In this document: positions 26,066-63,822 of the stretch, piece by piece
Layout of the letters: each line of letters starts with the position of its first letter
Position numbering within the stretch: the first letter of the stretch is position 1
Origin: Candidatus Limnocylindrales bacterium
GTDB lineage: Bacteria; Chloroflexota; Limnocylindria; Limnocylindrales; CSP1-4
Length of the DNA: 63,822 bases
Assembly (NCBI GenBank): GCA_035699445.1
Contig: DASSPX010000072.1
Span: 1-63,822 of the forward strand
Direction of reading: 5' to 3'
Program-made: the position numbers and the translations under genes
Notes under the pieces: model-generated
Database searches by the model: none
Told to the model about the DNA's origin: nothing
Seen by the model: only the letters and a program-made list of their open reading frames with translations

Positions 26066-27592
26066 TCAGGCGGCTGTTGCCTCCGGCGCCGGCGGGTAGA
26101 CCCCCCGCAGGTAGGCGTCGATCGCCGCGGCCGCGCGCTTGCCGTCGCCCATCGCAAGGATGACCGTAGCGGCGCCGCGCACGATGTCACCGCCCGCGAA
26201 CACCCCGGGCAGGTTCGTCATGCCGTGCTCGTCGGTGGTGATGTAGCCCCACGCATTGACCGTGAGGTCCGACGCGCTCGCGGTCAGCAGCGGGTTCGAG
26301 CGCGTCCCGATCGCGACGACGACGATGTCGCACGGGATCGTGAACTCCGAGCCTGGCACTTCCACTGGCCGTCGCCGTCCCGATTCGTCCGGCTCGCCCA
26401 GCGCCATCCGGAGGCACCGCAGGCCCGTCACCCAGCGCTCGTCGTTCCCGACCACCTCGACCGGCGCGACCTGGAGCTCGAACCGGATGCCTTCCTGCTC
26501 GGCGTGGTGGACCTCCTCCACGCGTGCGGGGAGCTCGTCGCGGCCACGCCGGTAGACGATCGTGGCTTCGCTCGCGCCCAGCCGGCGCGCAGTCCGCACC
26601 GCGTCCATCGCGACGTTGCCGCCGCCGACGACCACGACCCGCTGGCCGTGGAGGATCGGCGTCTCGGCGTCGGGCTGGTAGGCGCCCATGAGGTTGATGC
26701 GCGTGAGGTACTCGTTCGCCGAGTACACGCCCTTGAGGTTCTCGCCGGGCACGTTCATGAACACCGGCAGGCCCGCGCCGACGGCGAGGAACACGGCGTC
26801 GAACCGCTCCCGCAGCTCGGCGAGCGTCCAGGTCCGGCCGATGATCGCGTTTGCCTCGAATTCGACGCCCGCCGCGCGCAGCCGGTCGACCTCGGCCTGG
26901 ACGATGTCCTTCGGCAGCCGGAACTCGGGGATGCCGTACACGAGCACGCCGCCCGGGGCGTGGAACGCCTCGAACACGGTGACCTGGTGCCCGGCCTTCG
27001 CCAGCTCGCTCGCCGCCGTGAGCCCGGCGGGGCCCGACCCGACCACCGCGACTCGCTTCTCGCTGACCGGCCGCGGCTCGCCGTTCCTCGCCTCGGGGTG
27101 GGCCATCGCCCAGTCCGCGACGTAGCGCTCGAGCCAGCCGATCGCCACCGAGTCACCCTTCTTCCCGCGCAGGCACAGCCCCTCGCACTGCTTTTCCTGC
27201 GGACAGACGCGCCCGGTCACGCAGGGGAGGGCGTTGTCGTCAAGGAGCGAGTCGGCCGCGCCGGCAAGATCGCCGTCCCGCAGCCGGGCGATGAACCGCG
27301 GGATGTTCACACGCACCGGGCAGCCGTCGATGCACTTCGGGTTCTTGCACTGCAGACAGCGCTCGGCCTCGATGAACGCGAGCTGCTCGGTGAGCCCGAG
27401 ATTGACCTCGGTGAAGCTCGTGGCACGAACGGCGGCGTCCTGCTCGGGCATCGACACCCGCTCGATGAGCATCCGCTCCTTCGGGCTGACGGCCGGATGC
27501 TCGCCACGCGCGATGCGCCGGATGAGGTCGCGGACGGTCTCGGGATCGGGTGGTGTGGCCGGGGCAGGGGTGCGCTTCACGGTGTCGGTCAT
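26066..27592 (-). CDS. sudA: SudA/NfnB (GltD-like) large subunit of NADPH:ferredoxin oxidoreductase
   Basis: RCLQCKNPKCIDGCPV, GRVCPQE.QCE, GSGPAG, GVLVYGIPEFRLPK, GGGNVAMD, GGDIVRGAATVILA; ATGA overlap with sudB. Confidence 0.9.
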   Translation of the reverse strand: MTDTVKRTPAPATPPDPETVRDLIRRIARGEHPAVSPKERMLIERVSMPEQDAAVRATSFTEVNLGLTEQLAFIEAERCLQCKNPKCIDGCPVRVNIPRFIARLRDGDLAGAADSLLDDNALPCVTGRVCPQEKQCEGLCLRGKKGDSVAIGWLERYVADWAMAHPEARNGEPRPVSEKRVAVVGSGPAGLTAASELAKAGHQVTVFEAFHAPGGVLVYGIPEFRLPKDIVQAEVDRLRAAGVEFEANAIIGRTWTLAELRERFDAVFLAVGAGLPVFMNVPGENLKGVYSANEYLTRINLMGAYQPDAETPILHGQRVVVVGGGNVAMDAVRTARRLGASEATIVYRRGRDELPARVEEVHHAEQEGIRFELQVAPVEVVGNDERWVTGLRCLRMALGEPDESGRRRPVEVPGSEFTIPCDIVVVAIGTRSNPLLTASASDLTVNAWGYITTDEHGMTNLPGVFAGGDIVRGAATVILAMGDGKRAAAAIDAYLRGVYPPAPEATAA

Positions 27593-28455
27593 CGCGCGGC
27601 GACCTCGGGGACGCGCCCGGCGGCGAGCGCGGGGATGCGACACGCCTCGCGACGCTCCATGGCCGCCTGCTCGAATGCGCGGTACGTCGTCAGGCGGTCC
27701 ATGAGCAGGGCGAAGTCGACCGCGTGGCCGTCGAACTCGGGGCCGTCGACGCAGGCGTAGCGGGTCTCGTCGCCGACGCTGACCCGGCAGCCGCCGCACA
27801 TCCCGGTGCCGTCGACCATGATCGCGTTGAGCGAGACCTGGGTCGGGACGCCGTAGCCGCGGGTCAGCTCGCTGACCGCGCGCATCATCGGCACCGGGCC
27901 GACCGCGTAGACGGCGTCGATGCCGCCCGCCTCCAGGAGGTCGCGAAGCGCCTCCGTGACGAAGCCCGGCCGGCCGTAGCTGCCGTCGTCGGTGCAGCTG
28001 ACGACCGTGCCCGCGCGGGCGAGGTCGTCCTCGAGGATCACCCACTCGCGGGATCGCCCGCCGATGACGCTCGTGACGGCGACGCCGCGGCGGGCGAGCT
28101 CCTGGGCGATCGGCAGGATGACCGCGGTGCCGACGCCCCCGCCGACGCACACCGCGCGTCCGGCCTCGAGCAGCTCGGTCGGTCGGCCGAGGGGCCCCGC
28201 GACGTCCGAGATCGCCTCCCCGACGTCGAGCTCGCACAGGTCGGTCGTGCTCTTGCCGACCGACTGGATGACGAGCGAGATCGTCCCGGCGCGGGGATCC
28301 GCGTCGGCGATCGTGAGCGGGATCCGCTCCGCGCCCGGTCCCAGCCGCACGATGACGAACTGGCCGGGCCTGCGGACCGCCGCGATCCGGGGAGCCTCGA
28401 GGTCGAGGCGGGTCACGTTCGGGGAGAGCTGGGTGCGCGCGACGATCGGATGCAT
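27589..28455 (-). CDS. sudB: SudB/NfnA small subunit (FAD/NAD-binding, 2Fe-2S)
   Basis: RPGQFVIV, ERIPLTIAD, GPLG, IMVDGTGMCGGCRV, ACVDGPEFD. Confidence 0.92.
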   Translation of the reverse strand: MHPIVARTQLSPNVTRLDLEAPRIAAVRRPGQFVIVRLGPGAERIPLTIADADPRAGTISLVIQSVGKSTTDLCELDVGEAISDVAGPLGRPTELLEAGRAVCVGGGVGTAVILPIAQELARRGVAVTSVIGGRSREWVILEDDLARAGTVVSCTDDGSYGRPGFVTEALRDLLEAGGIDAVYAVGPVPMMRAVSELTRGYGVPTQVSLNAIMVDGTGMCGGCRVSVGDETRYACVDGPEFDGHAVDFALLMDRLTTYRAFEQAAMERREACRIPALAAGRVPEVAAR

Positions 28456-28589
28456 GGCCCTCGGACGGTGCGAGTTCTCCGCACCGGATCGTGCGATGGA
28501 GCGGGGTGGGCGGCCACCCGTCCTCCGGCCCTCGCGGGGCGTGCCGAACGTCACGAGGTTGGAGGACTCGCGCCGGGGGCGCGCGGTTT

Positions 28590-28728
28590 GCTGGCTGAGC
28601 CGCCGGGCGTTCCACCGGCTGACTGGCCCGCCGTCTGGCGCGTGTGGCGTGCCAAACGGCGACGGAGACGGCCGATTCGCGCCTTGAGGTGGGCCCGCGG
28701 AAGGCTTCCGTCATCAGGGTGAGCCGCC
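28590..28728. ncRNA. Candidate structured element, copy A (unassigned family)
   Basis: Aligns without gaps (52/71 nt) to 62127-62197 and shares three predicted helices with copy B. Confidence 0.5.
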
Positions 28729-28783
28729 AGCGGTGCCATGGACGGCCGGGCGCGGTGCGGACGTTCGCCCGCGCCCGGGAGCG

Positions 28784-29620
28784 CTAGGCGCGGTCCGCCG
28801 TGTCGCCAGCGCCGACCCCCGCCTCGGCGACCTGCTTCCCCTTCGGCCAGTAGAGCTCCTTCTTCACGTGGAACTCCGGGAAGCCGCGGTCCATGAGGAT
28901 CCGCTCGACGTTGAGGATCATCTCCGGGTTGCCGCAGATGTACACCACCGTCTGCTCCGGATCGAGGCGGAGGTGCCGCACGACGTCGCCCACGTTCGCC
29001 TCCACCCGCCCGGTCCGGCCGGTCCAGCCCGCGTTGCGCGGGTCGCTCGGGCGCGAGACCGTCGGCACGTAGGTCACAGGGTAGGTCCCGTCGCGCTCCC
29101 AGCCCTCGAGGAGCTCGCGATAGCCAAGCTCGTGCTCGTACGACACGCCGTTGAGCATCACGGTGCGGCGCGGCCGGCCGTCGCGCATCGTCTGGCGGAT
29201 CATCGAGATGAACGGCGCGATGCCCGTCCCCGTGGACACGTACAGGTGCGTCCGGTCGTCGTCTGGCTCGAGCATGAACCGGCCCTTGGGCCCGATCATC
29301 CGCATCCGGTGGCCCACCGGCAGCCGCCATAGCGCGGTCGTGAACCGGATCACCGGCACGAGGCGCACGTACAGCTCGTAGCCCTCCTCGCCTGCCACGG
29401 CGGGCGCCGACGCGACGGAGTACGGCCGCTGGAGCATCCGGTCGTCGACGACCACCCCGGTCGTCATGTACTGGCCCGGCTCGAACGGCGTCGGGTCGCC
29501 GTCGAACTTCACCCAGAAGTAGGCCAGGTCGTCCGTCTGGTCGACGCGCCGGACCAGGGTCGCGTTGTACTGGGGAGCATCCGCGGCGATCTGCCGGCGG
29601 TCCTCGTCGTGATGGGGCAT
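28784..29620 (-). CDS. fpr: Ferredoxin/flavodoxin--NADP+ reductase
   Basis: PGQY, RPYSVAS, STGTGIAPF, VYICGNPEMI; ATG 7 nt after TACACT. Confidence 0.9.
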   Translation of the reverse strand: MPHHDEDRRQIAADAPQYNATLVRRVDQTDDLAYFWVKFDGDPTPFEPGQYMTTGVVVDDRMLQRPYSVASAPAVAGEEGYELYVRLVPVIRFTTALWRLPVGHRMRMIGPKGRFMLEPDDDRTHLYVSTGTGIAPFISMIRQTMRDGRPRRTVMLNGVSYEHELGYRELLEGWERDGTYPVTYVPTVSRPSDPRNAGWTGRTGRVEANVGDVVRHLRLDPEQTVVYICGNPEMILNVERILMDRGFPEFHVKKELYWPKGKQVAEAGVGAGDTADRA

Positions 29621-61712: not shown

Positions 61713-61946
61713 TCAGGCGAGAACGGCGATCGCCGCGACGCCCGAGACGTCGTGCGCGAGGTCCACGCACTCGACCCGGCAGCCGCGCGCGTCGCGGCCG
61801 GCGATCGGGCTGAAGTGGAACCACGCCTGCGCGCCCTCGGGGCCGACGGCCTGGAGCCGACAGCCGCACGCGGCGCAGGTGACGGGCGCGTCCCGGCCGT
61901 CACGGACGGCGAGCGGCGAGCGGAGGGTCTCGGTCTGGTGAAGCAT
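61713..61946 (-). CDS. Small Cys/His-rich hypothetical protein (77 aa)
   Basis: SD GAGGA before ATG 61946; CAACGC...H...C.VEC...H. Confidence 0.65.
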   Translation of the reverse strand: MLHQTETLRSPLAVRDGRDAPVTCAACGCRLQAVGPEGAQAWFHFSPIAGRDARGCRVECVDLAHDVSGVAAIAVLA

Positions 61947-62119: not shown

Positions 62120-62257
62120 CTCGCTTGCGCCGCCCGGCGTTCCACCTGACGACTGGCCTGCCGATTGCGCCGCCGGGCGTGCCATCTGATGACGGAGCGG
62201 GTCCTGGAGGGCCCGGACGCCGTCTCCCGCGGCGGTTCCGCCGTCAGGTGAGACGTC
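62120..62257. ncRNA. Candidate structured element, copy B (unassigned family)
   Basis: Second copy of 28590-28728; 9-bp perfect long-range helix 62143-62151/62242-62250. Confidence 0.5.
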
Positions 62258-62345
62258 AGCCGTGCGACGCGCGGCCGTGCCACGGGCGGCCGTGCCACGC
62301 GCGGCCGGACCCCGCGGCCGGACCCCGCGGCCGGGCGCCGCGGCC
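62258..62345. repeat. Compound minisatellite downstream of gltB
   Basis: 15-nt unit ggccgtgccacgSgc (two copies plus one degenerate, 62258-62302) then 13-nt unit ggccggaccccgc (62303-62315, 62316-62328, degenerate 62329-62341). Confidence 0.85.
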
Positions 62346-62352
62346 CTGGGTC

Positions 62353-63822
62353 TCAGGAGGCCTTCGCCGCCGGCTCGACCACGACCGGACGGCGGATCCC
62401 CACGGGACGGGCATCCTGGACCGCTGCCGAGCCGGCCACCACCGCCGCGACGTCCGGGATCGGCTCCACGAGCCACGTGTCCTCCTCCGGGGCCGCCCGC
62501 TCGGCGAGCAGCCGCGCCGCCAGCGCCGAGCCCGCCTCGGCGTGCGCCGTCACGAGGCGCCGGAACTCGGACGCCAGCGCTGCGCCGTCGGCGCGGATCG
62601 CCACGGCATCCGAGAGCCGCACCGCCCGCACGCTCGACCCGTTGAGCGCGGCGAGGTGCCGGGCGCTCGGATCCCAGAGGTACGCCCGCCCGCCGGTCAT
62701 CCCGGCGCCGAAGTTCGGACCGACCGGCCCGAGCACGACCACCGCGCCGCCGGTCATGTACTCGCACGCATGCGGCCCGACGCCCTCGACCACGGCCTCG
62801 GCGCCCGAGTTGCGGACCCCGAACCGCATCCCGCCGCGCCCCAGGACGTGGAGCCGTCCGCCCGTCGCGCCGTACAGGCAGGTGTTGCCCACGAGCGCGA
62901 GACCCCCGGTCGCCGCGGCCGCCGTCGCCGGATGCGGCCGCACGATGATCGTCCCGCCCGACAGGCCCTTCCCGACGTAGTCGTTCGCGGTCCCGTCGAG
63001 CGTCAGCTGGACGCGATCGGTGGCGAACGCCCCGAACGACTGCCCGGCCGCCCCGCGAAGCTCGAGCCGCACGGGACCGTGCAGCTCCCCCCGCTCCACG
63101 GCACCGGCGAGCCCGGCACCGAACGACCGCTCGGCGGTCGTCAGCTTCAGCCCCGACGCCGCCAGGGCGCCCTGCCCGCCGAGCGCGGCGACGAGCCGGT
63201 GCTCGAGCGGCGAGGCGAGGCCGCGGTCCACCGTCCGGCCCGCGCGCTCGGGGTGCTCGCGCCGCTCGGGCGACGCGGCCCACGCCGGCGCCCCGGCGAG
63301 CGCGCGCAGGTCCACCGTCGAGTGGCGACGCTCGCGCAGGTACCGCCGGCCCTCGCCCACGAGCTCGCCGACGCTCCGGGCGCCGACCGCGGCCAGCTCG
63401 ATTCGCAGGTCCTCGGCGAGCTGGAGGAAGTAGCGGGCGACCATCTCCGGCGTCCCGGTGAACTTCGCCCGCAGGTCCTCGCGCTGGGTCGCGATGCCCG
63501 TGGGACACGTGTCCAGGTGGCACTGGCGCGCCATGTCGCAACCCACGGCCACCAGCGCGCCCGTCCCGAACGCGAACTCCTCGGCGCCCAGGAGCGCCGC
63601 GATCAGCAGGTCGCGGCCCGTCTGGAGCCCGCCGTCGGTGCGCAGCGCCACGCGATCGCGGAGGTCGTTGCGGAGCAGCGACTGGTGGACCTCGGCGAGC
63701 CCCAGCTCCCACGGCGCCCCGACGTGCTTGATCGAGCTGAGCGGCGACGCGCCCGTGCCCCCGCTGTGCCCGCTCAGGTGGACGTAGTCGGCGCCCGCCT
63801 TCGCGACCCCTGCCGCGATCGT
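62353..63822 (-). CDS. gltB: Glutamate synthase large subunit, 3' part (5' end outside window)
   Basis: SGHSGGTGASP, DGGLQTGRD, C..ARQCHLDTCPTGIATQ (3Fe-4S), GAAGQSFGAF, ANDYVGKGLSGG, RNSGA.AVVEG, CEYMTGG. Confidence 0.96.
   Translation of the reverse strand, partial: TIAAGVAKAGADYVHLSGHSGGTGASPLSSIKHVGAPWELGLAEVHQSLLRNDLRDRVALRTDGGLQTGRDLLIAALLGAEEFAFGTGALVAVGCDMARQCHLDTCPTGIATQREDLRAKFTGTPEMVARYFLQLAEDLRIELAAVGARSVGELVGEGRRYLRERRHSTVDLRALAGAPAWAASPERREHPERAGRTVDRGLASPLEHRLVAALGGQGALAASGLKLTTAERSFGAGLAGAVERGELHGPVRLELRGAAGQSFGAFATDRVQLTLDGTANDYVGKGLSGGTIIVRPHPATAAAATGGLALVGNTCLYGATGGRLHVLGRGGMRFGVRNSGAEAVVEGVGPHACEYMTGGAVVVLGPVGPNFGAGMTGGRAYLWDPSARHLAALNGSSVRAVRLSDAVAIRADGAALASEFRRLVTAHAEAGSALAARLLAERAAPEEDTWLVEPIPDVAAVVAGSAAVQDARPVGIRRPVVVEPAAKAS

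Follow-up and report, generated by a model that had tools for sequence, protein, structure and literature searches.

The two related intergenic elements on contig C72 of this Candidatus Limnocylindrales genome, one between an fpr-like and a sudB-like gene (copy A) and one next to gltB (copy B), belong, with a probability that we put at about 0.85, to a lineage-specific family of dispersed, intergenic and imperfectly palindromic DNA repeats, of the class that comprises REP/BIME, ERIC, Correia and MITE-like elements. Throughout, "the window" denotes the whole stretch of contig C72 that was analyzed (63,822 nucleotides), and "the genome" the MAG to which it belongs—an assembly of 2.84 Mb in 179 contigs, with 72.8% G+C and a completeness of 80%. 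The evidence for this assignment lies in the number and placement of the copies, the way in which they pair, their gain and loss among close relatives and the uneven rates at which their modules change.

Two elements in the window and their family in the genome

Positions 28597-28667 align without gaps to 62127-62197 with 52 of 71 nucleotides identical—precisely the figure reported in the initial annotation of this DNA—and the correspondence of the 3' blocks (28694-28723 and 62226-62252), also proposed there, held as well. When the two intergenic regions were aligned locally, the score was 77, as compared with 27.2 ± 4.2 (maximum 47) for 300 dinucleotide shuffles, a difference of about 12 standard deviations. 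The true unit of copy A exceeds the segment 28590-28728 that had been delimited at the outset: its core spans 28596-28738 and, together with weakly conserved flanks, the element occupies 28582-28752 (Table 1). The genes named as neighbors, i.e., fpr, sudB and gltB, carry Pfam domains that agree with those names, and both copies are located between genes of the same strand. In the window, gltB is followed by an ORF of 77 amino acids, not by gltD.

Table 1. Positions of the two repeat copies, their modules and the adjacent features in the window.
Feature	Position	Strand	Sequence or pattern	Evidence and remarks
Copy A, left flank	28582-28595		family pattern CCsG..CGCG..	weakly conserved; 23-copy flank comparison, pairwise identity 0.37, near background
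Copy A, terminal U box 1	28596-28614		TGAGCCGCCGGGCGTTCCA	19-nt unit, found in either orientation in the family
Copy A, inner inverted repeat, 5' half	28615-28623		CCGGCTGAC	family consensus CCTGAyGAC; helix 2 pairs in 87% of cells
Copy A, middle module	28624-28660		third U-like box TGGCGCGTGTGGCGTGCCA, then AACGGC	family pairwise identity 0.63
Copy A, inner stem, 5' strand	28661-28667		GACGGAG	89% identity across copies; pairs with CTCCGTC in 91% of cells
Copy A, center	28668-28705		38 nt	sequence unconstrained, length nearly fixed
Copy A, inner stem 3' strand and inner inverted repeat 3' half	28706-28719		TTCCGTCATCAGGG	
Copy A, terminal U box 3	28720-28738		TGAGCCGCCAGCGGTGCCA	same orientation as U box 1 (direct, not inverted); highest identity of all parts in the comparison of orthologous copies (0.85)
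Copy A, right flank	28739-28752		family pattern AAnnGCGnCGGrG	weakly conserved; identity 0.57
Copy B, core	62126-62267			nhmmer 84 bits; covariance model 119 bits
Copy B, U box 1	62126-62144			
Copy B, inner stem, 5' strand	62191-62197		GACGGAG	
Copy B, center	62198-62235			
Copy B, 3' block after the center	62236-62248		TTCCGCCGTCAGG	
Copy B, U box 3	62249-62267			
Tandem arrays	62259-62345		period 15, GCCGTGCCACGCGCG, ~3-5 copies; period 13, CGCGGCCGGACCC, 3.5 copies	TRF; right end of copy B, just past the gltB stop codon
SudA/GltD-like gene	26069-27592			after the sudB-like gene, near copy A; no other GltD-like gene was seen in the window
sudB-like gene	27589-28455	-		Pfam DHODB_Fe-S_bind; start codon 140 nt beyond copy A
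fpr-like ferredoxin/flavodoxin-NADP reductase gene	28784-29620	-		Pfam FAD_binding_6 and NAD_binding_1; stop codon 45 nt from copy A
77-aa Cys-containing ORF	61713-61946	-		high GC3; no Pfam match; other neighbor of copy B
gltB, 3' part (GltB C-terminus)	62353-63822	-		Pfam Glu_synthase and GXGXG; stop codon 85 nt from copy B

The element had been described as present twice, whereas BLAST and iterated nhmmer searches of the whole assembly converged on 47 matches, which correspond to 23 full loci detected on both strands plus a single partial one. When a covariance model was derived from the 23 copies, every one of them scored 86-150 bits. These full copies, at least 23 in number, are spread over 19 contigs; for six of them the nearest contig end is no more than 900 nt away, and one copy is divided between the ends of two contigs (C97 and C67), so the true copy number is probably higher than that counted. 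All 24 loci are intergenic. According to gene contexts that rest on GC3-based heuristic gene calls, approximately ten loci are convergent, six or seven divergent and four to six tandem. The convergent copies are often found 0-90 nt past a stop codon—in one case the element itself provides the stop codon—and further copies are present in divergent promoter regions. The neighboring genes are unrelated to each other, and they include those for a rhodanese, GNAT acetyltransferases, a glycosyltransferase, an XRE-type HTH gene and a Calx-beta protein.

This distribution bears directly on the reading that the initial annotation had preferred, i.e., a cis-regulatory RNA, next to which it had named an sRNA family and, as a fallback option, a structured intergenic repeat. 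The same annotation had specified beforehand that many dispersed copies with random neighbors would make the element REP/MITE-like, and at least 23 such copies are what the genome contains; it is thus the fallback that the dispersal over 19 contigs bears out. A riboswitch-like RNA controlling genes for ferredoxin- or NAD(P)H-linked enzymes (fpr, sudBA and gltB) would be in keeping with the location of both window copies between same-strand redox or glutamate-synthase genes. However, the 21 other copies flank unrelated genes, with about ten placed between convergent stop codons, and the consistent sense-strand 5' UTR site at functionally related genes that characterizes a riboswitch was not observed over the 24 loci.

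Two loci contain neighboring copies. At C12:3426-4549, two inverted copies separated by 840 nt flank a gene of ~220 amino acids with an XRE-type HTH N-terminus; the pair is composite-like in layout, with no evidence of moving as a unit. At C31:55383-57578, two direct copies with a spacing of 2054 bp bracket the gene of a Calx-beta-repeat secreted protein. The centers of the latter pair are 87% identical and, because this is the only pair with related centers, their relationship suggests a recent local duplication.

Modular anatomy of the repeat

The core of the repeat measures ~142 bp (~170 bp with the weak flanks) and forms an imperfect palindrome. Its modules follow one another in this order: a weak left flank (CCsG..CGCG..); U box 1, a unit of 19 nt (TGGmACGsCyGGCGGCkCA or its reverse complement); the 5' half of an inner repeat (CCTGAyGAC); a middle module consisting of a third U-like box and AACGrC; the 5' strand of a stem (GACGGAG); a center of 37-38 nt; the 3' strand of the stem together with the 3' half of the inner repeat (CTCCGTCrTCAGG); U box 3, with the same pattern as U box 1; and a weak right flank (AAnnGCGnCGGrG). 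The sequences CACCTGAyGAC and GTCrTCAGGTG constitute a true inverted pair of 11 bp. The terminal 19-nt U boxes are in direct orientation and give rise to two arm isomers, with both boxes forward in ~12 copies and both reversed in ~8; these outermost boxes pair only partly, and the element ends in TG...CA. Each copy comprises three U-type boxes joined by conserved linkers—the mosaic of units by which REP/BIME elements are recognized.

Pairwise identity across copies amounts to 0.73-0.76 in the arms and 0.89 in GACGGAG, and it drops to the background level (0.41) in the center, the length of which is nevertheless 37-38 nt in 23 of 23 copies. Several explanations for the center were tried and rejected: a conserved hairpin, on account of a mean fold z of -0.25; a segment copied from elsewhere in the manner of a spacer, as the copy centers have no match elsewhere in the genome; and an integron attC or CRISPR-like arrangement, since the copies are singly dispersed among housekeeping genes and the center is flanked by inverted, not direct, motifs.

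Pairing without covariation

No Rfam family matched at the gathering threshold over the whole window, nor at E<=10 over positions 28300-28900. Three helices had been proposed as common to copies A and B, and they can indeed be drawn and do pair across the family. In the 23-copy alignment, 85.5% of cells pair overall, as against 28-49% when the registers are slid by 1-3 columns, with values of 87-97% for the outer helix and 91% for GACGGAG/CTCCGTC. The middle helix (UGGCCCGCC/GGCGUGCCA), in contrast, pairs in only 73% of cells, and the covariation expected of an RNA among its homologs did not appear: helix covariation over the 23 copies was 0.092, compared to a mean of 0.101 in shuffled alignments, and 442 of 500 shuffles scored at least as high. 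RNAalifold and a hand-drawn version of the three helices likewise yielded pairing but no covariation. The mutual information between alignment columns was rejected as a sign of base pairing, because columns 22 and 153 covary as identity (GG/CC), not as complements, and reflect two subfamilies.

The suggestion that G-U pairs favor the plus strand was not sustained: relative to shuffles, the whole element folds somewhat better in either orientation, the mean z of the two strands being -2.1 and -1.8; every full copy, moreover, matches on both strands, with no strand preference. Because covariation does not rise above that of the shuffles and the fold is equal on both strands, the pairing is that of a conserved DNA palindrome, and neither result speaks for an RNA structure kept by compensation within the family.

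Gain and loss in close relatives

At a locus on contig C2, comparison with syntenic contigs—among which the rhodanese is 94-100% identical—revealed presence/absence polymorphism at two sites, a feature by which MITEs are recognized between close relatives. Site 1, located after the rhodanese gene, is filled in the genome under study, L225 and L226, and empty in L223, L224, L228 and L229; L223 and L224 encode a rhodanese protein identical to that of the filled L225. The flanks of this site are too rearranged to define a filled/empty junction. Site 2 is filled in the genome under study (C2:12583-12755) and L224, truncated in L223 and empty in L226, L228 and L229. In the empty site of L226, two convergent genes overlap at CTAG, which contains their stop codons, and the filled site corresponds to an insertion of ~186 nt from which the upstream gene obtains its last 4-5 codons and its TGA. 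No target-site duplication was visible at the junctions of this single clean comparison, in which the filled sites (own genome and L224) were set against the empty one (L226) and the insertion is old enough for erosion to be possible.

Decay of copies was captured as well. Comparing the sister samples L223 (16541-16631) and L224 (16541-16682), a deletion of ~85 nt with GCGCGGC microhomology removes the right arm in L223, and this is a direct example of copy decay. The right ends are also prone to slippage, as seen in four successive units of CTCAAGCGCG at the right end of the L224 element (L224:16660-16720) and in the arrays adjoining copy B (Table 1).

Taken together, the dispersed copies, the lack of covariation and the presence/absence polymorphism do not support a riboswitch-like reading. 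The helices can be drawn, as such a reading would have it, but unrelated neighbors, equal representation of both strands and the empty Rfam searches speak against it, the element is polymorphic among near-identical strains, and it is absent from the sudB loci of other genera. We therefore regard gene-specific control by an RNA of this kind as extremely improbable.

Distribution among relatives and search for a mobilizing partner

When the covariance model was run against 150 other genomes of the same family (49 genera), no strong match was obtained: among the 18-91 candidates scored per genome, the highest match outside the genome under study reached 57 bits, and each genome contributed one or two weak matches. 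These weak matches are cognate elements with the same architecture and a diverged sequence. Two such cognate families were found in G011 (at least six copies) and G117 (four copies), in which GAAGGAG/CTCCTTC takes the place of GACGGAG/CTCCGTC, such that both strands have changed and the stem has been kept; the loop length varies among the cognate elements of other genera. In the metagenome collection, a strict pattern gave no matches, and none of the at least 120 matches listed for a looser pattern was a family member by nhmmer. A full-text literature search returned no description of such repeats in Limnocylindria.

The search for a Y1/RAYT transposase (PF01797, Y1_Tnp) produced no matches in the genome (80% complete) or in eight relatives with cognate elements, and the same search was positive in 6 of 14 control genomes. 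No IS-sized segment bounded by arms of the element was found in the genome either; a PWM scan detected only one arm outside the known copies, at a contig end where it overlaps the C97 copy, in a MAG that is incomplete and in which ISs, as is often the case, may be unassembled.

Rates of change at the fpr-sudB site

The site of copy A is filled in three relatives (L220-L222), with SudB 92-96% identical, giving four orthologous copies. Identity among them is 0.85 for the U3 arm, 0.74 for the left module and 0.50 for the center, where one copy has an 11-nt insertion; at the same four loci, neighboring intergenic DNA is 0.47-0.58 identical, with many indels, and the 4-fold sites of sudB and fpr are 0.64-0.78 identical. 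Judged on these four orthologous copies, the rate of change in the arms is 2-4 times lower than that of synonymous sites, and the center is about neutral. Near-identical arms with unrelated centers are thus no longer paradoxical. The conservation of the arms above the synonymous level points to function or gene conversion, since pure selfish decay does not predict it.

Arm conservation, the length constraint on the center and the two-sided change of the stem make host-level function or concerted evolution possible. One such possibility, which is compatible with a dispersed repeat family, is a host-domesticated module, in which the U boxes and hairpin are bound by a protein, or act in RNA as a terminator or 3'-end stabilizer, and are kept by purifying selection. 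Arms that stand at 0.74-0.85 while 4-fold sites and neighboring intergenic DNA fall lower are in line with this proposal, as are a center constrained in length and not in sequence, the paired substitution of the stem between genera and the many copies situated 0-90 nt past stop codons. Yet the copies are dispensable, given the empty and truncated alleles in close relatives, and they also occur in divergent promoter regions; a promoter and terminator scan of copy A found none, with no U-tract or terminator-like signal, and gene conversion among copies could mimic constraint. We hold domestication to be a tentative possibility.

A second conserved stretch lies near copy A. Positions 28456-28555 (minus strand), which adjoin the sudB ATG (28455) on its upstream side, are 87-94% identical between the window and three related contigs, and the intergenic DNA around them is only 47-58% identical in the same four sequences. 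This stretch holds hairpins, e.g., CGCAC-GATCCG-GTGCG, plus a GAGGG Shine-Dalgarno; it showed no covariation among the four sequences and no match in Rfam. It is this stretch, and not the repeat, that constitutes a candidate promoter or leader of sudBA, and the location of the conserved part upstream of sudB outside the repeat is a further point against a riboswitch in copy A.

Relationship to known repeat classes

With the REP/BIME elements of Enterobacteria and Pseudomonas (GTAG REPs) and with the CGTC REPs, the family shares an extragenic location, tens of copies or more, a frequent position just downstream of genes, a short unit that occurs in both orientations and is joined by linker motifs as a mosaic, and a lineage-specific sequence. 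It differs in that its 19-nt unit is no simple stem-loop with a terminal GTAG or CGTC tag, in the repetition of the whole 142-bp composite, in a modest copy number and in the negative search for a RAYT in nine genomes. REP units are defined as stem-loops of 20-40 bp with an 8-9-bp stem, a 4-5-nt loop and one end tagged by GTAG or CGTC (PMC3733652), whereas the U box contains no more than a CGCCnGGCG-like core, and CGTC is found inside the long stem (CTCCGTCGTC) instead of forming a terminal tag. In the strict sense, the family accordingly does not qualify as REP, given the shape of its unit, the missing terminal tag and the negative RAYT search. A REP/BIME system made and moved by a RAYT would explain an extragenic palindromic mosaic with alternating unit orientation and species-specific sequence, and the CGTC motif in the conserved stem recalls the CGTC-tagged REPs, which, like this family, are without a dedicated transposase (Di Nocera et al. 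2013, PMC3733652). Nonetheless, the units are not hairpins with a terminal tag, and the nine genomes gave no PF01797 match in a search that was positive in 6 of 14 controls, such that we consider a RAYT-driven system highly unlikely.

ERIC/IRU (127-bp, Enterobacteria) and Correia/NEMIS (Neisseria) elements resemble the present family as imperfect palindromes of 100-170 bp in intergenic or intercistronic positions, which, when co-transcribed, can adopt long hairpin folds, and which are present in some strains and not in others. Correia elements have true TIRs of 26 bp and a TA duplication. The family described here, in contrast, has no sequence similarity to either group; its outer boxes are direct, no duplication was seen and its 38-nt center is unconstrained. 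Similarly, BOX elements of Streptococcus pneumoniae (boxA-boxB-boxC) are modular, intergenic and lineage-restricted, with conserved ends and a variable middle, but the number of boxB modules varies in BOX, whereas the module number is fixed here and only the sequence of the center varies. The likeness to riboswitches and cis-regulatory leaders in Rfam is limited to a GC-rich, foldable segment of ~140 nt between genes; unlike them, the family matches nothing in Rfam and shows no covariation, its position and orientation are not fixed with respect to any gene family, and its conservation stops at a single genus-level lineage.

A classical MITE, i.e., an internally deleted IS derivative mobilized in trans by a DDE transposase via terminal inverted repeats, would suit the size of 142-170 bp, the TG...CA termini, the inner 11-bp inverted repeat, the presence/absence polymorphism and the confinement to intergenic DNA. 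The outer 19-nt U boxes are direct, however, not inverted, and neither a target-site duplication nor a parent IS or larger element bounded by the arms was visible—leaving strict MITE membership unproven. Furthermore, diverged cognate families that share their architecture in other genera are more typical of REP-like systems co-evolving with a recognizer. A MITE in the classical sense is therefore unlikely. The family is a new, lineage-specific member of the known dispersed palindromic intergenic repeats, a real but ordinary kind of feature.

Proposed mode of propagation and significance

The repeat is most likely non-autonomous DNA propagated through a putative trans-acting recognizer, a reading that we favor because of the gain and loss of copies, their intergenic confinement and the recognition-like character of the U boxes and stem. 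In this model, the element spreads, or has spread, as non-autonomous DNA, and a putative trans-acting protein other than a RAYT would recognize the U boxes and the GACGGAG/CTCCGTC hairpin. Module constraint, or gene conversion among copies, would account for modules that are conserved 2-4 times better than synonymous sites beside a drifting center. A copy inside a transcript, as could be the case for A and B between same-strand genes, would fold, in a 3' UTR or between cistrons, into a long GC-rich hairpin; read-through or the stability of the mRNA may be influenced by it as a by-product of its position, and not through gene-specific sensing. Counted against non-autonomous propagation are the lack of a target-site duplication at the one clean site, of an autonomous partner and of a Y1/RAYT, the retention of the fpr-sudB copy in four lineages and the near-invariant length of a center whose sequence is saturated.

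The two-sided change of the stem, arms that are slow by a factor of 2-4 relative to synonymous sites and a length-constrained, sequence-free center are also the grounds for a broader and rather doubtful proposal, according to which the repeats would represent a Limnocylindrales-wide class of protein-recognized DNA or RNA modules. A recognizer distinct from both RAYTs and the known MITE transposases would spread or maintain them, and the host would use them, e.g., in defining 3' ends or organizing DNA.

Candidatus Limnocylindrales is an abundant, uncultured lineage of soil and freshwater Chloroflexota, for which a dispersed palindromic repeat family is now documented. For annotation, this means that an interpretation as regulatory RNA should be avoided for ~24 intergenic regions of the MAG and for those of related contigs; the repeats also account for several assembly breaks, given the six copies located no more than 900 nt from a contig end. 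Finally, since the family combines the absence of a RAYT with a sequence-free center of near-fixed length and arms that are better conserved than synonymous sites, it offers a modest but usable case for the persistence of transposase-less REP-like repeats.
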